Below, in pieces: positions 21,174-36,721 of a DNA stretch of 64,000 nucleotides. Made by a program: the position numbers and the translations under genes. The first letter of the stretch is position 1. The number at the start of each line of letters is the position of its first letter. Source of the stretch: an uncultured Fidelibacterota bacterium (GTDB lineage Bacteria > Fidelibacterota > Marinisomatia > Marinisomatales > UBA1611); NCBI GenBank assembly GCA_913040915.1, contig CAJWHW010000002.1, positions 22,129-86,128 of the forward strand, given 5' to 3'. The notes below the pieces were generated by a model. That model saw nothing but the letters and a program-made list of their open reading frames with translations. It was not told the origin of the DNA and ran no database searches.

Positions 21174-22375
21174 AGTTTTTCTCCTAAGGTTTCAGCAACG
21201 GTATTAACGTCTTTATCACCACGACCAGAAAGGCAGACCAAGACATCTTCATTTGGTTTAATTCCATTATTTGATTGACGTAAATAAGCTATAGCATGAG
21301 CAGTCTCAAGTGCTGGTAGTATACCTTCTTTTTTTGATAACCATTGAAATGCGTCTAATGCTTCCTGGTCTGTGGCAGAGCGGTATTCTATTCTACCTAC
21401 TTCGTTTAAATAACTATGTTCTGGGCCGATGCCAGGATAATCTAGGCCAGCGGAAATGGAATGGGGTAGAATAACCTGCCCATCATTATTTTGAAGTAAA
21501 GTAGAAGCAGCGCCATGCAATACTCCAAATTCTCCTTTATTCATAGTGGCAGCATGTTCTCCAGATTCAAGCCCTTTACCAGCTGCTTCAACTCCAATAA
21601 TCTTTACATCATCTTTCAGAAATGAATAAAATAATCCCATTGCATTTGATCCGCCTCCCACACAGGCAACTAAACGATCTGGTAAAATTTTATCAGATTG
21701 TTGAGAAAATTGTTTTTTTGTCTCCTTCCCAATTATTGATTGAAAGTCTCTTACAAGCATTGGATAAGGATGGGGGCCAACGGTTGAGCCAATTAAATAA
21801 TAGGTGGATTCAACATTAGTTACCCAATCACGGATAGCTTCATTGGTGGCATCCTTTAAAGTCATGCTACCTGAAGACACTGGTCTGACTTCAGCATTAA
21901 GTAATTTCATCCGAAATACATTTAATTTTTGTCTTCGTATGTCTTCTTCGCCCATATAAATAATACATTCTAACCCAAATCGTGCAGCAACCGTAGCGGT
22001 GGCAACGCCATGCTGCCCAGCACCAGTTTCAGCAATAATTCGTTTTTTCCCCATTTGCTTAGCCAATAAGATCTGCCCCAAAGCATTGTTGATTTTATGA
22101 GCTCCGGTATGATTTAGATCTTCTCTCTTTAGCCATATATTAAATTCCAATTCTTTTGAAATACGTTCTGCGAAGTAGAGAGCTGTCTCACGTCCTGAAT
22201 AATGATTAAGTAAATTATTTAACTCATCTTGAAAAAAGCGATCATTTGTTGCCCTAAGATATTGTTTCTCTAATTCTTCTAGAGCTGGAATAAGTGTCTC
22301 GGGTACATACTTTCCACCAAACTTATCAAAATGTCCTCGTTCATCTGGAAGGTTATAATTATCAAATTTTCTCAT
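21170..22375 (-). CDS. trpB: tryptophan synthase beta chain
   Basis: It contains [15 protein letters not shown] and [12 protein letters not shown] prefer the ATG at 22375 ([14 protein letters not shown]). The ORF-track start at 22411 would overlap trpF by 29 nt. Confidence 0.93.
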
Positions 22376-24834: not shown

Positions 24835-25404
24835 TCAACATTTTATTGTTAAGAAGTTTTTTATTATTTGTAAACCATTCTCAGTTGCTATGGATTCAGG
24901 ATGAAATTGTAATCCATAGACTGGATCATTTTTGTGTTCTATGGCCATAATTAGGCCATTGTTTAATTCTGCTGTTATTATTAATTCTTTAGGGAGTAAT
25001 TTTTTGTCAGCTACTAATGAATGATAGCGAGTGGCCATAAAAGATCCTGAAAATCCTTTGAATAGAGCAGATCCATTATGTTGAATCTTTGCAGTCTTAC
25101 CATGAACAATCTCCGATGAATGAACTACTGTGCCACCATAAGCAATTGTAATTGCTTGATGGCCAAGACAGACTCCAAGTATAGGAATTTCTTTCCCATA
25201 TTTTTTAATAATATTTACAGAATGACCCGCATTTTCAGGCCTCCCGGGTCCAGGAGAGATGACAATATGAGTTGGATCCCAATGAACAATATCATCCAAT
25301 TCGAATTGATTATTTCGTATCACTTTCACATCTGGATTAAGAACACCGATGTATTGTACCAGATTAAATGTGAAAGAGTCGTAATTATCAATAACTAAGA
25401 TCAT
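24835..25404 (-). CDS. trpG: anthranilate synthase component II (glutamine amidotransferase)
   Basis: 189 aa. It contains MILVIDNYDSFTFNLVQY, GVCLGHQ and LQFHPES. Confidence 0.93.
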   Translation of the reverse strand: MILVIDNYDSFTFNLVQYIGVLNPDVKVIRNNQFELDDIVHWDPTHIVISPGPGRPENAGHSVNIIKKYGKEIPILGVCLGHQAITIAYGGTVVHSSEIVHGKTAKIQHNGSALFKGFSGSFMATRYHSLVADKKLLPKELIITAELNNGLIMAIEHKNDPVYGLQFHPESIATENGLQIIKNFLTIKC

Positions 25405-26885
25405 GCTGCTAATCCATCCTCTGCGAAGTCAATTGCTGACATGATAGCCTTGGCCTTACTTACCGTTTCCTCAAATTCTTTGGTGGGGTCTGAATCATAG
25501 ACAATGCCTGCACCGGACTGAAAATGGACGGATCCATTTTTCATAATCATAGTCCTTATAGCTATACAAGTATTTACATTGCCGGTAAAATCAAAAAACC
25601 CGACAGCACCTGAATAAATATTTCGTCGTTCAGGTTCTAGATCTTTGATTATTTCCATAGCTCGAATTTTGGGAGCACCTGTAACCGTACCAGCAGGGAA
25701 ACCACTCATAAGCGCATCAAATGGATCTTTATGTTCGGCAAGCTTTCCTTTTACATCAGAAACAATATGCATAACGTGGGAATAATTTTCGATTACCATA
25801 TTCTCGGGAATGGTAATTGACCCAAATTCTGAGACACGGCCCACGTCATTTCTGCCCAGATCTAAAAGCATAAGGTGTTCTGCTCTTTCCTTTTCATCAT
25901 TTAATAGTTCGTGCGCTAATTTTTTATCTTCATCAACTGAGTCCCCACGTTTACGCGTGCCTGCAATAGGGCGGATTTCCACATTGCCATCTTCTACTTT
26001 TACTAAGAGTTCAGGTGATGCACCAATAATATCAAAATCATTAATCTTTAAATGGAACATATATGGTGATGGATTAATGTTTCTCAAAGCTCGGTAAAGG
26101 GTTGTAGCCTCTACATCGGTGGCCCTTTCGAACCGCTGACTGAGAACCAGTTGAAAAATATCACCGTTGACAATATACTCTTTAGCTTTAGCCACTGCTT
26201 TCTCAAATTTATTTTGATCAAAATTTGAAATTACTTTACTTTTTTTTACTTGTATTGGCGTCTGATAATCCACATTAGTATGTAGTGATTCGCCAATTAT
26301 ATCTATCTTTGAATGTGCTTTATTAAATTGGAATTCCAAATCTGCTGAATCATCAATATTAACATTTGAGATTACTAATGCAGACCCTTTTAAGTGATCG
26401 AAAGCAATTATGTTTTCAAATAACATAAAGACTGAATCAGGTATATTTAATGCTGAATCTGTGTGAATTGGAATATCTTCGAACCAGGTGATAGTCTCAT
26501 AGCCAAGGTAACCAACTAGTCCACCGGTAAAAGATGGAATCCCGGGAAACTTCATCATTTTATATTGAGATTGAATATCGCGAAGTAAATCTAAAAATGG
26601 TGTTTCCACTTTATTTTTGTTACCATTTTTATAGATAATTGTTTGTCCATTTTTGTGTGTCAATATTTGTTTTGGATTAATTCCTACATAAGAATATCTG
26701 GTATATTGATTCCCTTTTTCTACAGATTCTAGTATGAAAGCATATTTAGCCTTTTGAGATAAATGTATCCATGCTGCCACGGGCGTAAGAAGATCTGCCA
26801 GGATACGTTTATATACAGGTATAGTTCGGTTCCCTTGGGAAACCAAATCTTGAAATTCTTTGTAGGTCAGTTGAGTTTTATCCAT
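25401..26885 (-). CDS. trpE: anthranilate synthase component I
   Basis: It contains LADLLTPVAAW, PSPYMF and GAVGFFDF-GN. I prefer the ATG at 26885 (MDKTQL). The ORF-track TTG at 26894 lies inside the terminator T-tract. Confidence 0.95.
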   Translation of the reverse strand: MDKTQLTYKEFQDLVSQGNRTIPVYKRILADLLTPVAAWIHLSQKAKYAFILESVEKGNQYTRYSYVGINPKQILTHKNGQTIIYKNGNKNKVETPFLDLLRDIQSQYKMMKFPGIPSFTGGLVGYLGYETITWFEDIPIHTDSALNIPDSVFMLFENIIAFDHLKGSALVISNVNIDDSADLEFQFNKAHSKIDIIGESLHTNVDYQTPIQVKKSKVISNFDQNKFEKAVAKAKEYIVNGDIFQLVLSQRFERATDVEATTLYRALRNINPSPYMFHLKINDFDIIGASPELLVKVEDGNVEIRPIAGTRKRGDSVDEDKKLAHELLNDEKERAEHLMLLDLGRNDVGRVSEFGSITIPENMVIENYSHVMHIVSDVKGKLAEHKDPFDALMSGFPAGTVTGAPKIRAMEIIKDLEPERRNIYSGAVGFFDFTGNVNTCIAIRTMIMKNGSVHFQSGAGIVYDSDPTKEFEETVSKAKAIMSAIDFAEDGLAA

Positions 26886-26892
26886 TTTGCGC

Positions 26893-26921
26893 AAAAAAAA
26901 ACCCCGATCATTGCCGGGGTT
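26893..26921 (-). terminator. intrinsic terminator of the aromatic (trp-type) attenuator, 7 nt upstream of the trpE ATG
   Basis: The minus-strand RNA reads AACCCCGG-CAAUGA-UCGGGG followed by U9 (plus-strand A-run 26893-26901). The stem has five G-C pairs and one G-U pair, and the two flanking A residues can pair with the first two U residues. Confidence 0.8.
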
Positions 26922-27064: not shown

Positions 27065-27337
27065 TTATTTATTTTTTTGAAATTTTTTTGAAATTTTATA
27101 AACAGGATCAAAAATTGAAGCAATATCTTCTTTATTTAGCTTTCCATCCAATTTATTGGCAAGATGCTCTATAATTTCTTTTTCTCGATTTGGATCATGG
27201 ATTTTAATATTATTGGATGCTTTGATTTCACCAATCTGTTTTGAAATAGAAAAACGCTTTAAAAGAAAATCTAATATTTGATTATCTAAATAATCAATTT
27301 TGTCTCGCAGTGAATCAATTTTCTCTTTTGGGTTCAT
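27065..27337 (-). CDS. chorismate mutase, monofunctional AroQ class
   Basis: 90 aa, all-helical. LRDKIDYLDNQILDFLLKRFSISKQIGEIK is typical of an AroQ chorismate mutase. Confidence 0.85.
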   Translation of the reverse strand: MNPKEKIDSLRDKIDYLDNQILDFLLKRFSISKQIGEIKASNNIKIHDPNREKEIIEHLANKLDGKLNKEDIASIFDPVYKISKKFQKNK

Positions 27338-27394: not shown

Positions 27395-28537
27395 TTAAGT
27401 TTGTTCCAATGCCTGTTTGAGGTCAGCAATAATATCTTTGTGGTTTTCTATCCCCACGGAAATTCGCACTAAACCATCTGTGAGGCCTCGGGCATCTCGT
27501 TCTTTTTTCGGGACATCCGCATGGGTCATGGTAGCAGGGTGAGTGATCATGGTTTCCACAGAACCCAAACTTTCTGCTAACTTTGCCAATTGAACAGAAT
27601 TCATCACAATTTTTGCTGCGGGGATGCCGCCAATTAATTCAAAAGAAATCATACCACTATATCCGGACATTTGTTTTTTGGCAATAGCGTGGCAAGGATG
27701 AGAAGGGAGTCCAGGATATGCTACCCGGAATACTTTAGGATGAGCCTCTAAATATTCCGCTACTGCTTGGGCATTTGAAAAATGCTTTTTCATTCGTATA
27801 TCCAATGTTTTAACACCGAGAATGGTGAGCCAGCAATCAAAGGGCCCGGGAACGGCGCCAATGGTTTTTTGGATGAATTTCAGTTTTTCAAACAAGTCTT
27901 CCCTATTGGTAATTACTACGCCCCCAATCAATTGGTTATGGCCGCTTAAATATTTGGTAGTACTGTGCATCACCAAATCTGCACCGAATTCCATTGGTCG
28001 GAGGAAAACAGGTGTAGCAAAGGTAGAATCCACTCCAAATAAGATATTATGTTTTTTAGCAATTTCACCAACAGCTTCAAGATCTGTGATCTTTAATAAT
28101 GGGTTTGTGGGTGTTTCTATCCAAATTAATTTTGTTTTGGGTTGAATTGCATTTTCAACATTTGTAGGAATGGAAGAATCTACATACGTGAAATGTAAAT
28201 CATAATTCACTAAGATCTGGTTAAAATACCGGGACACGCCACCGTAAACATCATCGGAACAAATGATATGGTCGCCTGCTTTCAACAATTTTAAAACACC
28301 ATCCACAGCGGACATACCACTAGCAAAGGCAATTCCAAATTGTCCTCCATCAAGCTCGGCTAAAATTTCTTCCATAACCTGTCTTGTGGGGTTGGATGAA
28401 CGGGTATAGTCAAATCCTTTATCTTGGCCAACTTCTTCCAAAACGTAAGTGGCTGTTTGGTAGACAGGCGGTAGGATAGACCCAGTAGTAGGATCAGGTT
28501 CTGTACCTGCCTGGACAACTTTTGTATCAAATTTCAT
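27395..28537 (-). CDS. Cys/Met-metabolism PLP enzyme (cystathionine gamma-synthase, beta-lyase or gamma-lyase family)
   Basis: 380 aa. It contains TKVVQAG..PDPTTGSILPPVYQTATY and the lysine motif HSTTKYLSGH. The exact reaction cannot be assigned from sequence alone. Confidence 0.85.
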   Translation of the reverse strand: MKFDTKVVQAGTEPDPTTGSILPPVYQTATYVLEEVGQDKGFDYTRSSNPTRQVMEEILAELDGGQFGIAFASGMSAVDGVLKLLKAGDHIICSDDVYGGVSRYFNQILVNYDLHFTYVDSSIPTNVENAIQPKTKLIWIETPTNPLLKITDLEAVGEIAKKHNILFGVDSTFATPVFLRPMEFGADLVMHSTTKYLSGHNQLIGGVVITNREDLFEKLKFIQKTIGAVPGPFDCWLTILGVKTLDIRMKKHFSNAQAVAEYLEAHPKVFRVAYPGLPSHPCHAIAKKQMSGYSGMISFELIGGIPAAKIVMNSVQLAKLAESLGSVETMITHPATMTHADVPKKERDARGLTDGLVRISVGIENHKDIIADLKQALEQT

Positions 28538-28560
28538 AAAAGATCCTGTGTTCTAATTCA

Positions 28561-29853
28561 TTATTTTGCCAGTAAATATTCCTTTAGGTCAGAAAATTTT
28601 TTGGACATTTTTATGGATTTTTTTTCTTTTTTTATAGTAATCTGCAATGAATCTGGCAGGGATGTTTTAAATCCAGTAATGGGTTCAATCACATCTGCAA
28701 ATTTCCCCGGGTGGGCTGTGGATAAAACAACTCCCGTTGATATTGAATTTGTTTTCTCTCTATATTTTTTTAATCCCAAGACACCAACTGAAGTGTGTGG
28801 ATCAATCAAATAGCCAAATTCATCTTGAATACTTTTAATAGATTCTTTTGTCTCTTCATCAGGGAAGCTCCAACTGGCAATATCCATTTTTACTTGCCTT
28901 ATATTATCGTGAAATAAGTCTATTATTCGATCCAAATTACTGGGCACACCAACATCCATTGCATTAGATATTGTTTGTACAGCATCTTGATGTTGAATTA
29001 TTCCACTGCTTAAAAAGTGTGGGAAAGTATCATTTGCATTTGTGGAAGCTATAAATTTCTCAACTGGAACTCCCATACGGTTTGCGAAAAGCCCCCCGGT
29101 TAAATTCCCAAAGTTTCCACTAGGAATGCTAAATATTATTGGCTTGTATTTACTGCAGTGTTTCCAAGCCCAGGCATAATAAACCGATTGAGGCAATAGT
29201 CTAGCTATATTAATTGAATTAGCAGAACTTAATGATAAACTACTACGCAAATCGATATCTTGAAAAGAAGCTTTAACTAATCGTTGGCAATCATCAAAGG
29301 AGCCATCTATTTCTAAAGCAGTAATATTGCCACCCAAAGTTGTAATTTGTTTTTCCTGAATGGCACTTACTCGATTGGAAGGATAAAGAATAATAACATC
29401 AATGCCATCTACATTAAAAAAACCGTTTGCAACGGCACTTCCAGTATCACCAGATGTAGCTACTAATATCTTTAACCTATCACCATTATTTTCAAGAAAA
29501 TAAGACATCGTTTGAGCCATAAACCGTGCAGCAAAATCCTTGAAGGCGAGTGTCGGCCCGTGAAATAACTCCAATATAGAATCGGTTTTATTTAATTCTT
29601 TAATTTGCATGGGAAAATTAAATGCCAATTCACAAATATCAGTTAATTGAGCATGTGTTAAATCACCTTCTGTGAATGGATAAATCATACCAACAGCTAA
29701 TTCGGGGTAACTAAAATCAGATTTAAAAAAGTCTATCCCTAATTGAGGAATAGTTGCAGGCATATAAAGTCCACCATCCGGCGCTAATCCATGGAACAAT
29801 GCTTCCTTGAATCCGACTGAAATAGCCTTATTATTTGTACTGTAAAAGCGCAA
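28561..29853 (-). CDS. thrC: threonine synthase
   Basis: 430 aa. It contains GLAPDGGLYMP, HGPTLAFKDFA and ATSGDTGSA. Confidence 0.93.
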   Translation of the reverse strand: MRFYSTNNKAISVGFKEALFHGLAPDGGLYMPATIPQLGIDFFKSDFSYPELAVGMIYPFTEGDLTHAQLTDICELAFNFPMQIKELNKTDSILELFHGPTLAFKDFAARFMAQTMSYFLENNGDRLKILVATSGDTGSAVANGFFNVDGIDVIILYPSNRVSAIQEKQITTLGGNITALEIDGSFDDCQRLVKASFQDIDLRSSLSLSSANSINIARLLPQSVYYAWAWKHCSKYKPIIFSIPSGNFGNLTGGLFANRMGVPVEKFIASTNANDTFPHFLSSGIIQHQDAVQTISNAMDVGVPSNLDRIIDLFHDNIRQVKMDIASWSFPDEETKESIKSIQDEFGYLIDPHTSVGVLGLKKYREKTNSISTGVVLSTAHPGKFADVIEPITGFKTSLPDSLQITIKKEKKSIKMSKKFSDLKEYLLAK

Positions 29854-29856
29854 GTA

Positions 29857-30792
29857 TCAGTCCAAAATTTCCGGTGGTTTTGTATGAATTGGTGTACTAT
29901 AAGCAGTACTTTCAAGTCCAGCGTTTTTAAATGTATTCACCATTATTAGTCCTATTTTCTCCGCAGTCTCTATTGAATCTGATAAAGCGAAAATAGCAGG
30001 CCCAGAGCCAGAAATACCGCAGCCGATTGCCCCGGCATCTATTGCGGATTGTCGAACAGATTTGTAACCGGGTATAAGTTCTGCTCGAACAGGTTCAGCA
30101 AAAAGATCCACCATTGAACGGCTCAAAAGATCAAAATCAGATTTATGAAGGCCTAAAGTAAAACCTGCCAAGTTTCCGGCCTGCTCAACTGCAGATTTTA
30201 AAGAAACTCGTTTAGGTAGCATACGCCGTGCGTCAAGAGTATTCACGCTAAAATCAGGTAATACTGCTGTACTGAATAAATTTTTTGGAACTGGTAAATT
30301 CAGAACATCTAAAGGTTCATAACTGCGAATCAGGATGATTCCGCCGAAAAGAGCAGGTGCAATATTATCTGCATGTAATCCACCCGATGCAACTGCTTCT
30401 CCTGCCATACCATGAGCTAACAATTCACTATTTTTGAATGGATTATTCAATAATTCATTTAAACCCACAACAGCTGCAGCTGCACTGGCAGAACTAGAAC
30501 CCAACCCGCTTCCTGGTGGAATACCTTTTTCAATATGAACCTTAAATCCTTGATTACTACCCAAAGTATCAAGAAAAGATAATATAGCTTTACCTGCAGT
30601 ATTATTTTCAGGATTAACAGGGATTGATTCATATTTTATACCCGAAATTGAAATTTCTATTACCGATTTTTCATGTTTTTTAATTGTAACAATATCTCCC
30701 GGTTTTGTAATGGCGTAACCAATACAATCAAAACCGCAAGATACGTTAGCGACTGAAGCCGTTGCTTGGACTCGAATTGAATTATTGAACAT
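29857..30792 (-). CDS. thrB: homoserine kinase
   Basis: It contains the GHMP kinase motif PPGSGLGSSSASAAA. I prefer the ATG at 30792 (MFNNSIRVQATASVANVSCGFD). The ORF-track start at 30876 would run about 95 nt into asd. Confidence 0.9.
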   Translation of the reverse strand: MFNNSIRVQATASVANVSCGFDCIGYAITKPGDIVTIKKHEKSVIEISISGIKYESIPVNPENNTAGKAILSFLDTLGSNQGFKVHIEKGIPPGSGLGSSSASAAAAVVGLNELLNNPFKNSELLAHGMAGEAVASGGLHADNIAPALFGGIILIRSYEPLDVLNLPVPKNLFSTAVLPDFSVNTLDARRMLPKRVSLKSAVEQAGNLAGFTLGLHKSDFDLLSRSMVDLFAEPVRAELIPGYKSVRQSAIDAGAIGCGISGSGPAIFALSDSIETAEKIGLIMVNTFKNAGLESTAYSTPIHTKPPEILD

Positions 30793-31888
30793 GGATATAT
30801 CCTTTTTGAACAAGTAGTTCTGCCATAAGAATGGCACCACCAGCGGCACCTCGAACTGTATTGTGCGACAATCCAATAAATCGAATATTAAAAAACATAT
30901 CCTCTGTTATTCGCCCAACTGTTACAGTCATGCCATTTCCCAAATCTCGATCTAATTTAGGTTGGGGACGATCTATTTCATCCAAAACAATAATAGGAAT
31001 TTTTGGGGCTGATGGGAAATGCATAGCTTGTGGTTCTCCTATAAATGAAGATAAAATTAATTTGAACTCATCTATAGTAGGGGCAATATCAACAAATCCA
31101 ATATGTACTACAGCAGTATGTCCATCTATTACTGGTACACGTGTACATACTGCATTTATAGCTAATCCCTTGAATTGCTCAATACCGCTTTCCGTTACTT
31201 CACCAAATATTTTTAATGGTTCTTTTTCTGTCTTTTCTTCTTCTCCACCAATATAGGGTACAACATTATCTTTTAAATCTGGATTGGTTAATGCTTTATA
31301 GCCAGCACCTGACAATGCTTGAAGGGTGGTCACTTGTACGCGATCCACCGGAAACCCTGCTTGTTTTAATGCTTCTAAAACAATAATATATGATTGAATT
31401 GAACAATTAGGTTTAACTGCTACAAAACCAGAGTTTGGTAAATTTCGAATCATCTGTTGGATAGGAATCACCTCTGCATGATGAGGATTTATTTCAGGAA
31501 TGATCATAGGTACATCACGGGTTTGACGATTAGCAGAACTAGTGGAAATAACAGCGTATCCTTTTTTTGCATACCCAAATTCAAAATCACGTGTATCCTG
31601 TTTTTTTTGTAAGTCTAACGCAGAAAATACACAGACTACATCCTCAGGTATTGATTCAAAATCATTCACATCCCGAACAATCAAGTTAGCAATTGAATCA
31701 GGAATCTGTGTATCTATAGCCCATTTCTCACTAGTTGCTTCCCTGTAAGTTTTTCCGGAAGAATGCTTGGATGCAGCAACGTCTATAACGTCAAACCATG
31801 GGTGGTTTTCCAATAATTTTAAGAAGTTTTGACCGACCATTCCAGTAGCACCTAAAACACTTACTTTAATATTTTTTTTTAGTAACAT
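30782..31888 (-). CDS. asd: aspartate-semialdehyde dehydrogenase
   Basis: 368 aa. It contains VLGATGMVGQ and the active-site region KPNCSIQ. It overlaps the thrA stop by 10 nt. Confidence 0.9.
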   Translation of the reverse strand: MLLKKNIKVSVLGATGMVGQNFLKLLENHPWFDVIDVAASKHSSGKTYREATSEKWAIDTQIPDSIANLIVRDVNDFESIPEDVVCVFSALDLQKKQDTRDFEFGYAKKGYAVISTSSANRQTRDVPMIIPEINPHHAEVIPIQQMIRNLPNSGFVAVKPNCSIQSYIIVLEALKQAGFPVDRVQVTTLQALSGAGYKALTNPDLKDNVVPYIGGEEEKTEKEPLKIFGEVTESGIEQFKGLAINAVCTRVPVIDGHTAVVHIGFVDIAPTIDEFKLILSSFIGEPQAMHFPSAPKIPIIVLDEIDRPQPKLDRDLGNGMTVTVGRITEDMFFNIRFIGLSHNTVRGAAGGAILMAELLVQKGYIHVQ

Positions 31889-34263
31889 TTTAAAATATCT
31901 CCTAATACACCAGCAGCAGTGACTTCAGCTCCGGCACCATGTCCTTTTATAACCATGGGGGTATCTTTATATCTTTTAGTCGTAAACATAATAAAGTTTT
32001 CACGTCCATTTTGATGATAAAAAGGGTTTTTAATTCCCACTGCTTTCAATTTCACTGTTACATTTTGCCCATCCCAGGTGGCAATATATCGTAACGCCTT
32101 ATCCTCTCTAGAAGCTGAAATATACATGTTTAAAAATTGGTCATCATATTTGGATAATTGCTCTAAAAACTCATCAATGGAAAATGCCGGATCCATATTT
32201 TCTGGAATTAAGCTTTGAATAGATACATCATCAAACTCTAATTGTGCACCAGTCTCTCGGGCCAAAATGAGAATTTTTCTTCCCACATCCACACCATTCA
32301 AGTCATCTCTTGGGTCTGGTTCTGTGTACCCGTTTTCCTGTGCATATTTTACCAACTTACTAAATGCAATTGAACCATCAAATCGACTGAATAAATAGCT
32401 TAGCGTCCCAGACATAATTCCTTCAATTTTTTCAACTGTATCACCTGTTGCCAATAAAGTTTGTAATGTTTCAACAATAGGGAGACCTGCGCCAACATTT
32501 GTTTCATATTTAAATTGAGAACCGGCAGCATTTGAATTTTCACGAATTAAATCATAATAATTCTGATTCATGGAATTGGCCAGTTTGCTAGCAGATACAA
32601 CAGAAATTCCTTTTTTTAAAATGTTTGCTATTTTTTTTGCGATTATAGGTGATGATGTTACATCCACAAATACGGGGTTAAGAGACTGAGCTGCATAAGA
32701 AATAAATGATTCTAAATCGACTGTATCACCACTTGCTAATTCTTCTACATAATTTTGGGAATCTAATCCATTTGGATTAATAATCATTTTTTGACTATTT
32801 ATTATACCGCATATATTTATGGAATTATTATCCTGAATTAACTTTATTAAATCTGAGCCAACCAACCCAACCCCAGCAATAAATACATTTATAATAGCAT
32901 TGTTTGAAAAAATATATTGATGCAAAGATCGAATGGCTGATTTGACTTCATCATTTTTAATAATAAAGGATATATTTCTTTCCGAAGATCCTTGAGCAAT
33001 AGCAACCACATTCACATTTTTTTCTCCAAGAACGGAAAATAGTTTCCCGGAAATTCCAGGTGTATGGCGCATCCCCTCGCCTACAACAGCAATGAGAGAA
33101 AGATCATTTTCAATATTAATAGTATCTATAAAATGGTTTTTCAGTTCAAACAAAAATTCTTTCTTCAAAAGTGATTCAGCTAGATCAACTTCTTTAGGTT
33201 GGATAGCAAAACAAATGGAATGCTCGCTAAACACTTGAGATACAAGAATAATATTTATTTTCTTTTTGGCTAGTGCATCAAATACACGTCCAATAACTCC
33301 AAAACGTCCCACCATACCGGCTCCTTGGAATCGGATTAAGGAAACATTATACAAAGATGAGATACCCACGGCAAAATGGTCATCCCTTGCACGGTCCTGT
33401 GTAATAGCCGTTCCTGGATTATCCGGTTCAAATGTATTTTTAATACGGATCGGAATAGATTTATATAAAGCAGGAATCATAGTGGGTGGGAAAATAACTT
33501 TTGCCCCGGCATGAGCCAATTCCATGGCTTCTTCATAAGTAATATGAGAAATGGTTTTTGCATCAAAAACCACATTGGGATCGGCAGACAAAATACCGTT
33601 TACATCAGTCCAGATTTCTATTTCATTTACATCTAAAGCAGCGCCAAAAATGGATGCGGTATAGTCTGAACCGCTCCTTCCAAAAGTTGTTGTTTCTCCT
33701 AATTCAGTGGCACCAATGAATCCAGTAATTATCCTTGTTTTTGATTCATCTTTCCATTCATTACGAATATTATTGTAAGATTTTTGATAATGAACAAATG
33801 CATTTCCGAAATGATCATCTGTTAAAATAACCTTTCGCGCATCCAAATATGTTGCATTTATTCCTTTTTCGATACATACTTCCGTAATAATTATTGCAGA
33901 TAATTGCTCACCAATACTTAGTGCTGCATCTTTTAATTGCAGTGTACATTTTTTCTTTTTGGCAATTGTACTTAATATAAGACATAATTCATTTTCTATT
34001 TCTTGGATAGTATTAAACAATAGTTCTTTTTCAAGATGAAGATCATGAATAGTTTTCCGATGCCTATCAAAAAACAATTGTAAATCATTATTATAATCAG
34101 CGTCCCGTTCTGCACATGAGATTAATTGAATGAGTTGATCCGTAATGCCACCAAACGCAGATACAACTACACCACATGGATGTTCAGATGAAATAAGCTG
34201 CACCACTTGCTCAATTCGTTGGGACGTTTTTACGGATGATCCGCCAAATTTGAGAATTTTCAT
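31879..34263 (-). CDS. thrA: bifunctional aspartokinase / homoserine dehydrogenase
   Basis: 794 aa. The N-terminus MKILKFGGSSV is an amino-acid kinase. Central ACT-like repeats are followed by a C-terminal homoserine dehydrogenase (GAGLPIVETL, TEPDPRDDLNG-DV). Confidence 0.93.
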   Translation of the reverse strand: MKILKFGGSSVKTSQRIEQVVQLISSEHPCGVVVSAFGGITDQLIQLISCAERDADYNNDLQLFFDRHRKTIHDLHLEKELLFNTIQEIENELCLILSTIAKKKKCTLQLKDAALSIGEQLSAIIITEVCIEKGINATYLDARKVILTDDHFGNAFVHYQKSYNNIRNEWKDESKTRIITGFIGATELGETTTFGRSGSDYTASIFGAALDVNEIEIWTDVNGILSADPNVVFDAKTISHITYEEAMELAHAGAKVIFPPTMIPALYKSIPIRIKNTFEPDNPGTAITQDRARDDHFAVGISSLYNVSLIRFQGAGMVGRFGVIGRVFDALAKKKINIILVSQVFSEHSICFAIQPKEVDLAESLLKKEFLFELKNHFIDTINIENDLSLIAVVGEGMRHTPGISGKLFSVLGEKNVNVVAIAQGSSERNISFIIKNDEVKSAIRSLHQYIFSNNAIINVFIAGVGLVGSDLIKLIQDNNSINICGIINSQKMIINPNGLDSQNYVEELASGDTVDLESFISYAAQSLNPVFVDVTSSPIIAKKIANILKKGISVVSASKLANSMNQNYYDLIRENSNAAGSQFKYETNVGAGLPIVETLQTLLATGDTVEKIEGIMSGTLSYLFSRFDGSIAFSKLVKYAQENGYTEPDPRDDLNGVDVGRKILILARETGAQLEFDDVSIQSLIPENMDPAFSIDEFLEQLSKYDDQFLNMYISASREDKALRYIATWDGQNVTVKLKAVGIKNPFYHQNGRENFIMFTTKRYKDTPMVIKGHGAGAEVTAAGVLGDILKCY

Positions 34264-34337
34264 TTTAATACTAATTAAATAGGTTTATCGTTAGTCGAAA
34301 TATTACGGTTAATAAAAGTTTTACATGCTAAAAAGTG

Positions 34338-34517
34338 CTAATTGGAAATCAAAATATTACCAAATTCCTTTAATGAGAATAGGTTCACAGCATGATCCGC
34401 ATTGTTGAATATATATGATGTTGAAGAAAAAATTCGGACTGCTCTAGCGTTTGTGCCTGCCATCGGTTCCTGCCTGGTATGGAACTGTAATTTATCAAAA
34501 TGATTATTATTGCACAT
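34338..34517 (-). CDS. possible 59-aa small ORF between the SAM riboswitch and thrA (uncertain)
   Basis: It falls below the ORF-track size cut-off. The minus strand reads AAGGAAAAATATCT-ATG TGC AAT AAT AAT..., which is MCNNNHFDKLQFHTRQEPMAGTNARAVRIFSSTSYIFNNADHAVNLFSLKEFGNILISN. It has an SD-like AAGGA 9 nt upstream. No homology recognised. Confidence 0.2.
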   Translation of the reverse strand: MCNNNHFDKLQFHTRQEPMAGTNARAVRIFSSTSYIFNNADHAVNLFSLKEFGNILISN

Positions 34518-34657
34518 AGATATTTTTCCTTATTTTGTGTTATTTATTGGTTTGTTACTAATATTTATGAATTAGTTATTCATAATAAATACAAAACGTA
34601 ATTGATAGCTTGTTGGGATAATATGTTAGAGGGCAAGAGACATTACAGCAGTATCTG

Positions 34658-34770
34658 TCTTATCAGTCTTCTAAAAAACTCGAAGCAGGAATTAGCACCT
34701 TGAACCGCATTGTACGGAGATGGTTGCTAAGGTATCTTAGGGCCTGATCCCTCCACCTTTCTGGATAAAA
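34658..34770 (-). promoter_or_regulatory. SAM-I (S-box) riboswitch
   Basis: The minus strand reads UUUUAUCCAGAAAGGUGGAGGGAUCAGGCCCUAAGAUACCUUAGCAACCAUCUCCGUACAAUGCGGUUCAAGGUGCUAAUUCCUGCUUCGAGUUUUUUAGAAGACUGAUAAGA. It matches the S-box core elements AUC-AGA-GG-GGAGGGA--GGCCC--GA--CC--GCAACC...AAGGUGCUAAUUCC-GC...GAUAAG. The P1 halves UUAUC(C)AG and CUGAUAA pair with each other. Confidence 0.85.
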
Positions 34771-34964
34771 TCCGGTACTGATCTGTCAAAAAGCATAAAA
34801 AACTTCTTTTAAATGTTAAATATGAAAATAAAATAATGCAAGATAACATTAATATATTTAACTATACTCCATCATTTTCTATAATTTTTTTATAAATAAA
34901 AGGAATATGATTTATATTTGAATGTTGCCCTTTATAAGAATTTGTTATAAACTTTTAGCCAATT

Positions 34965-35048
34965 ATGAACATACGACGACGCCATAACCATCATCTTAAC
35001 ACTTTGATTAATAACAATAATAATATGAGTGGGGGCGAAGCTTTGTAA
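34965..35048 (+). CDS. Asn-codon leader peptide (27 aa) upstream of asnB
   Basis: The sequence ATG AAC ATA CGA CGA CGC CAT AAC CAT CAT CTT AAC ACT TTG ATT AAT AAC AAT AAT AAT ATG AGT GGG GGC GAA GCT TTG TAA encodes MNIRRRHNHHLNTLINNNNNMSGGEAL. It has 8 Asn, five of them consecutive (35010-35024). Confidence 0.6.
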   Translation: MNIRRRHNHHLNTLINNNNNMSGGEAL

Positions 35049-35073
35049 CCATAAGGTTAAGCTTTAATAAAAA

Positions 35074-35108
35074 CCTCCAGGGATTTTAATTCATGGGGGT
35101 TTTTTTTT
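35074..35108 (+). terminator. intrinsic terminator of the candidate asnB attenuator
   Basis: CCTCCA (35074-35079) pairs with TGGGGG (35094-35099) in a 6-bp stem with one G-U pair and a 14-nt loop. It is followed directly by T9 (35100-35108), 23 nt before the asnB ATG. Confidence 0.7.
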
Positions 35109-35131
35109 ATATCAAATAAAAGGAAAAAATT

Positions 35132-36721
35132 ATGTGTGGCATATTTTTATATAAAGGTAGAAAACAAGATTGGAATTCATTGGAACCTGATATTAAACGG
35201 ATTGGTTATCGCGGCCCAGATAATACACACCATGAAATGATTGGCAATGATATATTATTAGCTTTCCATCGATTAGCTATCATGGGCACAAGTGAAATGG
35301 GCGATCAACCGATGAAACATCCCAATGATGCTTCGCTCACTCTGATCTGTAATGGTGAAATTTATAATTATAAAAATTTAGCTAAAAAATATAGCTTTAA
35401 TTTGAAGACAGGCTCTGATTGTGAAATTATTTTATTCATGTTTAAACAATTTGGTATTCAAAGAACTGTAAAGGAATTAGATGGCGTTTTCATGTTCGTA
35501 TTATATGAAGCAAATACTGGTCTACTTTTTGCTGGCCGGGATCCCATGGGTGTTCGTCCGGGGTTTATCGGTCGAAATGGAGATGAGATTATGATTGCAT
35601 CAGAAGCAAAATCCATGGTGAATCATTCTTCAAGTATTATTCCATTTCCCCCAGGGCATTGGTGGTGTTCGAACCTTTCAGATATATTCAATCCTTATTT
35701 TCTTTATAATAAAATCAAAATTCAAGAAAACACCGAAGAAGATATTTGTAATAAAATCCAGTTATTATTAACAGCTGCAGTTAAGAAACGGCTTATGACA
35801 GAACGTGATATTGGGTGTTTATTATCTGGTGGTTTGGATTCGAGTTTAATTTGTGCTCTTGTGAATAAGTATTATGAAGGACCAAAACTAAATACATTTT
35901 CTATTGGACTTGTAGGGAGCATTGACCTTGAATATGCACAAGATGTGTCCTCTCATTTGAAATCAAAACACCACCAGATAGAAGTATCTCAAAATGAGTT
36001 TTTAGATGCAATTGAAACTGTGATTTATAATATTGAATCTTATGATACTACTACAGTCAGAGCCAGTGTAGGCAATTACCTCGTTTCAAAATATATTTCA
36101 GATAATTCTGATTGCAAGGTGATTTTTAACGGTGATGGCAGTGATGAGGTATGTTGTGGATATGTATATTTAAGGAATGCACCATCACCAGTTGATTTGC
36201 AAAAAGAAAATGAAAGGCTGGTTGAAGAGATTCATTATTTTGATGTGCTGCGCTCAGACCGCAGTATTAGTTCTAATGGTTTGGAAGCACGGACGCCTTT
36301 TTTGGATAAAACATTTGTGAAGTATTATTTATCAATTCCTGCGGAATTAAAGTTATTTGATGGGGCACAAAGATTAGAAAAATATTTATTAAGAAAAGCT
36401 TTTGATGATCAGGGACTTTTACCAGATAAAGTTTTATGGCGTCGGAAATGTGCTTTTTCAGATGGTGTAAGTTCGCAGAATAATTCCTGGCATCATATTA
36501 TCCAATCATTTGTAGACCAAAAAATTAGTGATGAAGAATTTCAGCGAGAAAGCACTAAGATCACACATTGCACTCCTCAATTAAAAGAGAGTTATTACTA
36601 TCGTAAAGTATTCAATAGCTTCTTTGAGAATCATGAGAATTTAATTCCTCATTTCTGGATGCCTAAGTGGTCCAATACGATAGACCCTTCAGCTAGAGAA
36701 TTAAGTGGGTACAAAGAATAA
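35132..36721 (+). CDS. asnB: asparagine synthetase (glutamine-hydrolysing)
   Basis: 529 aa. The N-terminal nucleophile MCGI is present, with the PP-loop LLSGGLDSS. An SD, AAAGGA, lies 7 nt upstream. Confidence 0.93.
   Translation: MCGIFLYKGRKQDWNSLEPDIKRIGYRGPDNTHHEMIGNDILLAFHRLAIMGTSEMGDQPMKHPNDASLTLICNGEIYNYKNLAKKYSFNLKTGSDCEIILFMFKQFGIQRTVKELDGVFMFVLYEANTGLLFAGRDPMGVRPGFIGRNGDEIMIASEAKSMVNHSSSIIPFPPGHWWCSNLSDIFNPYFLYNKIKIQENTEEDICNKIQLLLTAAVKKRLMTERDIGCLLSGGLDSSLICALVNKYYEGPKLNTFSIGLVGSIDLEYAQDVSSHLKSKHHQIEVSQNEFLDAIETVIYNIESYDTTTVRASVGNYLVSKYISDNSDCKVIFNGDGSDEVCCGYVYLRNAPSPVDLQKENERLVEEIHYFDVLRSDRSISSNGLEARTPFLDKTFVKYYLSIPAELKLFDGAQRLEKYLLRKAFDDQGLLPDKVLWRRKCAFSDGVSSQNNSWHHIIQSFVDQKISDEEFQRESTKITHCTPQLKESYYYRKVFNSFFENHENLIPHFWMPKWSNTIDPSARELSGYKE

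Follow-up and report, generated by a model that had tools for sequence, protein, structure and literature searches.

A SAM-I riboswitch probably stranded ahead of a threonine operon by loss of metY in a marine Fidelibacterota lineage

The 64,000-nt stretch analyzed here (the window; positions 22,129 to 86,128 of contig CAJWHW010000002.1 from an uncultured Fidelibacterota bacterium) carries on its minus strand an S-adenosylmethionine (SAM)-I or S-box aptamer, a 59-codon open reading frame (ORF) and a threonine (thr) operon. The aptamer, with helices P1-P4, occupies positions 34657..34771 and matches Rfam family RF00162 over the full model (1-108 of 108) with 73.8 bits (gathering threshold 44.4) and an E-value of 3.5e-16; it is the sole match in the 64 kb, where no second Rfam family rises above threshold. 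The cmscan boundaries (34771-34657) differ by 1 nt from the core (34770-34658) placed by a first-pass annotation of this DNA, which had proposed the same family. P1, P2, P3 and P4 are all present in the alignment, non-canonical pairs being confined to distal P3 and to single positions in P4 and P1, and P1 is 98.6% paired across 10 relatives. The aptamer is, with near certainty, a genuine SAM-I riboswitch; that the window copy binds SAM and controls a gene is a prediction. The short ORF follows at 34338..34517, and the operon (27395..34263; Pfam, NCBIfam and the gene calls in L036, one of the comparison loci that bear L numbers below) begins with thrA (34263-31879; aspartokinase, ACT and homoserine dehydrogenase domains by Pfam), whose start lies 393 nt from the aptamer, close to the 395 nt given earlier. 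It continues on the same strand with asd (31888-30782), thrB (30792-29857), thrC (29853-28561) and a gene for a 380-aa Cys/Met enzyme dependent on pyridoxal phosphate (PLP) of the CGS/CBL/CGL family (28537-27395), an order that Pfam confirms. ThrA clears the NCBIfam cutoff for bifunctional aspartokinase/homoserine dehydrogenase I (909 bits vs 726), and the PLP enzyme stays below every NCBIfam equivalog cutoff. Upstream of the riboswitch, asnB and an ilvB-like gene diverge.

The nearest relatives of the window by ThrA are metagenome-assembled genomes of Candidatus Neomarinimicrobiota (Marinimicrobia, SAR406), which are free-living marine bacteria; high AT content and the genes for amino-acid biosynthesis had first suggested an endosymbiont, a guess that was rejected on this ground. 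ThrA identity to the window amounts to 91% in L003, 88% in L001, 71% in L005, 66% in L006, 60% in L038 and ~43% in Bacteroidota. Metagenomes were surveyed in a single scan with a 20-nt string common to the aptamers of the window and L038, which yielded 54 loci that were sorted by tblastn; positions such as -236 or +145 are counted relative to this search string. The junction of asnB, riboswitch, short ORF and thrA recurs in independent ENA and TARA assemblies (L036, L037), with 3-5 differing positions in 8.4 kb, and is therefore no assembly artefact.

The 59-codon ORF is very probably the N-terminal remnant of metY, the gene for O-acetylhomoserine sulfhydrylase, and thus of the original riboswitch target, judging from homology over 34505-34353. 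Its product matches residues 2-52 of the Thermus enzyme (2ctz_A; E 5.6e-11, phmmer against the PDB), as well as other MetY-type structures, and residues 5-55 of the L040 MetY with 71% identity (E 4.6e-17, tblastn). The start codon of this stub lines up with the native start in 22 intact MetY N-termini, and the AAGGA at 34531-34527 is the native metY ribosome-binding site (RBS), kept ahead of it. Past GNI (residue 55) the MetY homology is lost, and the frame closes four codons later, so that no full-length (~430 aa) PLP-binding fold is encoded. MetY homology is not continued in any frame between the stub and thrA, Pfam (PF01053) gives no match for the 59-aa piece alone, and no other metY, no metA and no second aspartokinase were found elsewhere in the window. 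At ~23 positions the 22 intact N-termini show conservation of at least 95%; four of these are replaced in the stub (T to K, A to T, G to R and P to R). Among three assemblies of the window lineage, two single-nucleotide polymorphisms (SNPs) fall in its 180 nt, one of them non-synonymous (A26T), compared with one in the 2385-nt thrA and none in ~230 nt of promoter and aptamer; the counts are small and of low power. Because MetY-conserved residues have been lost and the SNP density is the highest of the locus, the stub appears to be under relaxed constraint.

The first-pass annotation had described this ORF with coordinates and a Shine-Dalgarno (SD) sequence that both stand, but it missed the metY origin. 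It had also suggested that the riboswitch might control the small ORF alone. Such an output, whether the 59-aa product or only a short transcript or trans-acting RNA, is very improbable. The frame is indeed open across all 56 homologous codons, for which we estimate a ~2% chance if fully randomised at this base composition, the RBS is good, and riboswitch-controlled upstream ORFs (uORFs) are known (PMC12810186). An open frame is, however, expected anyway after a recent deletion, the peptide is a MetY N-terminus minus conserved residues, and the polymorphism described above, including A26T, is concentrated in it. The stub is lineage-specific: a search with it against 5.8 billion proteins returned a single 90% cluster of it, on 5 contigs; the two other matches are 5' pieces of interrupted metY genes, P0002 (L038) with a frameshift and P0003 (L040) with a stop codon in frame. 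The other options raised earlier, action through Rho or a long-range structure and additional internal promoters, are still reasonable.

Interruption of metY was also observed in its own right in another Marinimicrobia lineage. In L040 (1095-1097), L041, L042 and L039, four short-read contigs from different samples, an in-frame TAA stands at the conserved Tyr56 codon (GNIYTRIMNPT), where L038 and L046 keep Tyr; it represents an independent inactivation. L040-L042 belong to the same lineage as L038 and differ by the TAA, the metY of L038 has a separate frameshift that is possibly a long-read error, and in L039, whose scaffold contains N gaps, all similarity is lost immediately beyond the TAA.

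The homologous aptamers of relatives precede metY, metY-metA or metB-like genes, and the window aptamer likewise sits in sense orientation 5' of the metY start. In L038, L045, L046, L047, L065, L075, L083, L085 and L092 the same clade-specific aptamer is followed by metY-metA-thrA-asd(-thrC); in L038 a divergent SulP gene comes first, and the order is SAM-I, metY, metA, thrA, asd, thrB. L064 and L091 have a 417-aa metB-like gene between the aptamer and thrA-asd. In L051 and L060 a RimK-like/unknown/CysM/JAMM/CysO-MoeZ cassette takes this place ahead of a thrA 89% identical to that of the window, and L096 has the same cassette type with asnB, proC and the his operon further upstream. L084 (a 1.5-Mb contig, ThrA 80%) carries asnB, a split proC and the riboswitch, which lies ~155 nt upstream of thrA without an intervening methionine gene. 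Beyond this clade, a SAM-I aptamer with a classical terminator is followed by metY, metX and an aspartokinase-homoserine dehydrogenase gene in L068 and L081, and in the unrelated lineage of L071 the aptamer directly precedes an aspartokinase-type gene.

SAM control of thrA had been called physiologically odd. This does not hold up, since the same riboswitch heads thrA-asd-thrB-thrC operons in many Marinimicrobia and stands directly before thrA in L084. In Clostridioides difficile, SAM-I riboswitches precede hom1, which encodes homoserine dehydrogenase, as well as metY-metA (PMC11477304), so that SAM-I over both functions is an established regulon design. The clade operons, L084, L071, L068/L081 and C. 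difficile hom1 together make SAM control of aspartokinase/homoserine dehydrogenase a recurrent design, normal in this clade as far as gene order tells. Different from C. difficile, where hom1, metY and metA belong to separate units, Marinimicrobia place metY-metA or a sulfur cassette and thrA-asd-thrB-thrC behind one riboswitch, and the window no longer has its methionine genes.

The cassette itself deserves a separate description. At 3991-8498 of L051, and also in L059, L060 and L096, the SAM-I-controlled interval between riboswitch and thrA encodes a RimK-like ATP-grasp ligase, a 172-aa protein without family match, a CysM-like cysteine synthase, a JAMM/desampylase-like protease and a SAMP/MoaD-fused MoeZ-type E1 with a rhodanese domain. 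Its predicted genes suggest that cysteine or homocysteine is made by a sulfur-carrier-protein route.

Upstream of the stub, the window shares with relatives a conserved riboswitch module of 382 nt (34614..34995, minus strand; hereafter the head) that comprises an AT-rich upstream region, a promoter, the 5' leader, the aptamer, a post-P1 segment and a C-rich tail. By blastn its identity to both L059 and L051 is 84% over 365-395 nt, from about -236/-247 to +145/+146, and its homology ends at +145/152, ~45 nt past P1, irrespective of the next gene. The AU-rich, metY-type leader that follows and contains the native metY RBS (34518..34614) is ~60% identical to L059/L051 beyond +150, about the level that unrelated AT-rich sequences would reach. 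The left edge of the head, 34995, is the point where L003 homology stops and the edge of a segment absent in L003 and L001; the 707 nt of the window at 34995-34289 correspond in position to 154 nt of unrelated sequence in L003. At the other end, the stop codon of the stub (34340-34338) sits at the junction with a conserved thrA-proximal spacer of 72 nt (34264..34336, minus strand), the right edge of the proposed deletion. This spacer is identical to the pre-thrA spacer of L051/L060 at 63/74 positions (85%), though a CysO-MoeZ gene lies upstream there. L003 and L001 retain just its last 28 nt, and the metA-thrA spacer of L038 agrees with it over the final ~20 nt.

Since the 59-codon ORF is a metY 5' remnant, the long gap between aptamer and thrA can be read as a deletion scar. 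In the ancestral Marinimicrobia operon the SAM-I riboswitch would have been followed by metY, metA, thrA, asd, thrB, thrC and the PLP enzyme. With an L038- or L095-type operon as model, a deletion of ~2 kb in the window lineage would have removed metY after codon ~56 together with metA, leaving behind the promoter, the full riboswitch module, the metY RBS, the 59-codon stub and the 72-nt pre-thrA spacer; the sister lineages L003 and L001 would additionally have lost the riboswitch. We consider such an in-situ loss from a metY(-metA)-thrA operon likely, the direction of events being deduced from sequence comparison. The 154-nt spacer of L003/L001 was also considered as a remnant of the window insert left by stepwise deletion, and this was rejected because shuffled sequences give local matches just as good (45/300).

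The opposite direction would start from an ancestral asnB-thrA arrangement as in L003, into which the riboswitch module and the 5' end of metY were introduced by recombination with an L059-, L051- or L095-like relative. The lineages closest by ThrA, L003 and L001, and likewise L005 and L006, have no such element, the left edge of the module (34995) cuts into a leader ORF of asnB, and the occurrence of the module before differing cassettes suggests mobility by recombination. Yet on the right (34336-34264) the insert is bordered not by the L003 spacer but by the thrA-proximal module found behind the SAM-controlled cassettes of L051/L060, so that both flanks of the insert match riboswitch-bearing relatives. 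Moreover, the linkage of riboswitch and thrA spans ThrA identities of 46-89%, including L084 and L096 where it is found beside asnB, and an element present in the ancestor and lost repeatedly is the more parsimonious account; a truncated gene also fits a deletion better than the import of a useless fragment. Loss is favoured on these grounds, and a gain is improbable.

A second, independent case is found in L051, L060, L069 and L096. Homology of these loci to L059 covers -60..+152 and resumes at the RimK-like gene (99%); missing from them is the ~1.17 kb that holds the 417-aa metB-like gene in L059, and their riboswitch is intact. At ~3700-3990 of L051 (+150..+436; the same in L060, L069 and L096) lies a decayed stub, MTKINQNNHKASP followed by a stop codon, and then a frameshifted FWKEST..VHG remnant. 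The interval between asnB and thrA differs widely in content: in L096/L051 it holds proC, the his operon, the riboswitch head, a metB-like stub and the sulfur cassette; in L084 proC, split into two ORFs, and the head; in L005/L006 proC; in the window the head and the metY stub; and in L003/L001 nothing recognisable. It shrinks in this series from ~15 kb down to 318 bp, and no proC or his genes were found elsewhere in the window. With the asnB leader and thrA as borders, this appears to be a hotspot for deletions and for the exchange of cassettes.

Similar to the classical S-box of Bacillus and Clostridium methionine genes (RF00162), the window has a full four-helix aptamer in sense orientation 5' of metY, but it differs in what surrounds the aptamer. 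A promoter-like site lies upstream (34792..34819, minus strand; TTAACA at 34819-34814, a 16-nt spacer and TATGCT at 34797-34792; 9/12 in the consensus scan). Promoter-like sites in the region occur in chance number, and the significance of this one derives from the conservation of TTAACA/TAYGCT in L059, L051 and L063, not from its scan score; promoter plus 5' leader are 86-88% identical to L051 and L059. The earlier statement that neither a terminator hairpin nor an SD-sequestering helix follows P1 is upheld. No intrinsic-terminator-like site was detected by consensus scan in 34150-35200, complementarity between the tract and the RBS does not exceed shuffled controls (z = +1.5 in the window; duplex z-scores range from -1.8 to +1.6), partition-function folding gives the same RBS accessibility in 'closed' and 'open' states, and the global fold of 34250-34790 is no more stable than shuffles (z +0.84). 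The intact Marinimicrobia relatives likewise have no terminator or SD-sequestering platform, which sets the clade apart from the classical S-box. Anti-SD boxes picked by eye, CUCCUUUC in L038 and CAUUCUUUUUCC in L084, were rejected as an SD-sequestering platform because they failed to generalise.

Two other elements, also foreign to the classical S-box, are conserved: an outer helix, P0, between the 5' end of the transcript and the post-P1 segment, and the C-rich tail. In the window the 5' strand of P0 (34776..34787; GACAG at 34787-34783 and CAGUA at 34780-34776) lies near the predicted transcript start, and its 3' strand (34639..34653; UACUG/UGCUG at 34653-34646 and UGUC at 34642-34639) overlaps an alternative hairpin, AGACA...UGUCU. 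RNAalifold pairs the 5' leader (GACAG..CAGYA) with the 10-30 nt after P1. On 10 window-type leaders 90.6% of cells are paired, compared with at most 56% when the partners are slid, and the four core P0b pairs are intact in 10/10. Double changes occur at two pairs (C:G to U:A in L095; A:U to U:A in L064 and L043); the covariation score is reached by 17/500 shuffles and the sequences are related to each other, which gives moderate support. P0 appears in the minimum-free-energy structure of nearly all 'closed' models and recurs in three leader groups (duplex z -0.1 to -3.2), and P0/P1 versus the local hairpin would make a plausible ligand-dependent alternative pairing. The C-rich, G-poor tail (CUCUUGCCCUCUAACAUAUUAUCCC; 34615..34639, minus strand) is a candidate Rho-loading tract. 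The first 60 nt after P1 contain 17 C vs 6 G, the C/G ratio is 1.9 over 100 nt, compared with a strand background of 1.08, and remains at least 1.5 as far as the RBS of the stub. Within the subgroup the motif CCCUGA..AUNAUCC is conserved, the tail ending in the AUNAUCC box.

Because the end point of the conserved unit does not depend on the gene behind it, and because the start codons are a further 120-330 nt away, the regulatory decision is most likely made within the head, at the level of transcription and independent of an RBS. In the absence of an intrinsic terminator, and given precedents of riboswitches without one, Rho termination is the leading candidate: SAM would lock P1 and P0, the C-rich, G-poor tail would be left exposed, and Rho would then terminate in the AU-rich leader or the stub. 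We propose this Rho-type output tentatively and by analogy. For the thiM, ribB and lysC riboswitches of E. coli, ORF translation and Rho-dependent termination are combined (PMC5499598, PMC10946432), and the pe20 Mbox of M. tuberculosis pairs a riboswitch with a small uORF in a Rho-type mechanism (PMC12810186). As in these systems, the window presents an aptamer without intrinsic terminator, a short ORF and then the operon, with a C-rich leader and plausible polarity. Rho dependence and a translational platform have been demonstrated there, whereas for the window a role of Rho is suggested by the sequence; the window also differs in having no detectable RBS-sequestering pairing and in a short ORF that is a gene remnant rather than a conserved uORF.

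Does the switch still act on thrA? In comparison with L051, promoter and 5' leader are 86% identical, the aptamer 90% and thrA coding DNA 90.6%, with ~60% in the leader beyond +150. The riboswitch module is thus as conserved as thrA coding DNA, which indicates constraint over the window-L051 divergence. The aptamers of relatives with intact operons score 73.8-89.6 bits, and the window falls within this range, its score being the same as that of L075, where the aptamer heads an intact operon. With no terminator between, transcripts from the riboswitch promoter should reach thrA unless stopped. On balance, we probably see a SAM-I riboswitch that was stranded by a metY(-metA) deletion with its module intact and that keeps transcription into the thr operon SAM-repressible; on its own, the prediction of continued SAM-responsive read-through into thrA is an even call.

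Several observations weigh against this interpretation. The window aptamer is the lowest-scoring of its immediate subgroup (73.8 vs 76.7-89.6 bits), with mismatches in distal P3 and P4. The z-scores of P0 are modest (-1.1 in the window) and the compared sequences interrelated, and pairing of the C-rich tail with the G-rich 5' half of the aptamer, tried and rejected, does not exceed composition-matched shuffles (mean z +0.5). Conservation relative to L051/L059 covers the time before the deletion and cannot prove selection since then. The thrA-proximal spacer could contain an internal thrA promoter or leader, which would count against SAM control if that promoter is independent; a consensus scan for promoters found none between aptamer and thrA on the minus strand, but the total of sites equals chance and the scan is uninformative. 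In L001, L003, L005 and L006, asnB likewise diverges from thrA-asd-thrB-thrC but no SAM riboswitch is present, so the switch is dispensable there, and the window copy could be awaiting deletion.

These points feed the main rival, in which riboswitch and stub are neutral leftovers, thrA is read from the conserved 72-nt module, and a later deletion as in L003/L001 would complete the loss. The low aptamer score, the relaxed constraint on the stub, the conserved thrA-proximal module and the riboswitch-free thrA loci all fit, and the narrow distribution of the stub (one 90% cluster, 5 contigs) points to a deletion so recent that retention need not imply selection. We nevertheless find a mere relic doubtful. 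Promoter, P0, aptamer and tail retain the family features, with the core P0b pairs intact; the ~230 nt of promoter and aptamer carry 0 SNPs vs 2 in the 180-nt stub, at low power; L084 keeps the riboswitch directly before thrA and L051 keeps it after loss of the first gene; and no terminator separates the riboswitch promoter from thrA. At the other extreme stands a broader proposal: the Marinimicrobia head could be a self-contained, RBS-independent, Rho-type module that gates a homoserine-branch super-operon (an exchangeable sulfur/methionine cassette plus thrA-asd-thrB-thrC) and that, after cassette loss in the window and L084, was co-opted as the main SAM-responsive control over aspartokinase/homoserine dehydrogenase and the synthesis of threonine. 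This is speculative, and we rate it as unlikely as the relic.

Once the riboswitch is read as stranded, what seemed a paradox, a SAM switch remote from a thr operon and without a platform, becomes a snapshot of genome streamlining in which a regulator outlives its target gene and is left ahead of the next genes downstream, those of the thr operon. It is a gene-loss scar in a known type of system and not a novel kind of regulator; literature searches of the accessible library for Marinimicrobia riboswitches and for stranded riboswitches found no direct precedent. The series L096/L051, L084, window and L003/L001 provides a natural experiment on rewiring and loss of a riboswitch regulon in ocean bacteria that are abundant and uncultured. 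The whole SAM-I clade, which has no canonical platforms and shares P0 and the C-rich tail, is a testable candidate for Rho-type SAM-I regulation outside model organisms. Finally, the loss of metY and metA in the window and the metY nonsense allele in another lineage bear on the dependence of SAR406 on methionine and reduced sulfur.

The thr operon of E. coli is preceded by the thrL attenuator, whose leader peptide senses threonine and isoleucine and which terminates transcription prematurely ahead of a thrA-thrB-thrC type operon. The window likewise has an upstream leader ahead of its thr operon, but the sensor is a SAM aptamer, and the leader-peptide attenuator of the window lies on the divergent asnB. 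This putative attenuator (34965-35110, plus strand), upstream of the asnB ATG at 35132, contains a leader ORF at 34965-35048 whose 27-aa product, MNIRRRHNHHLNTLINNNNNMSGGEAL followed by a stop, includes five consecutive Asn codons; in L003 the peptide reads MIQFNTLFNNNNNMSGGEAL, again followed by a stop, and the lineages carry runs of 4-5 Asn codons. The window insert boundary at 34995 replaced the original 5' end of this ORF, and an in-frame ATG remains. Two mutually exclusive helices follow 3' of the ORF, a GGGGG...CCCCC antiterminator and a terminator stem with U9 (CCCCCAAGG...CUUGGGGG + U9; given for the window as CCUCCAGGG...CAUGGGGG + U9). They are 94-97% paired and nearly invariant, with no covariation, and the leader block is conserved in 7 Marinimicrobia lineages, more than the flanking coding DNA. 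A literature search of the accessible library for Asn-codon attenuators of asnB found no precedent, and when the spacer was scanned against Rfam with permissive settings, the one further match was His_leader on the asnB side, below threshold (24.4 bits vs 49). By its sequence, the leader has the anatomy of a classical ribosome-mediated attenuator, putatively sensing the charging of Asn-tRNA.

At the other end of the thr operon, a chorismate mutase type II ORF (90 aa, 27065-27337, minus strand) and trpE (25401-26894, minus strand) lie directly 3' of the PLP enzyme gene. With asnB, the ilvB-like gene and the thr and trp genes, the window forms a dense amino-acid biosynthesis cluster.

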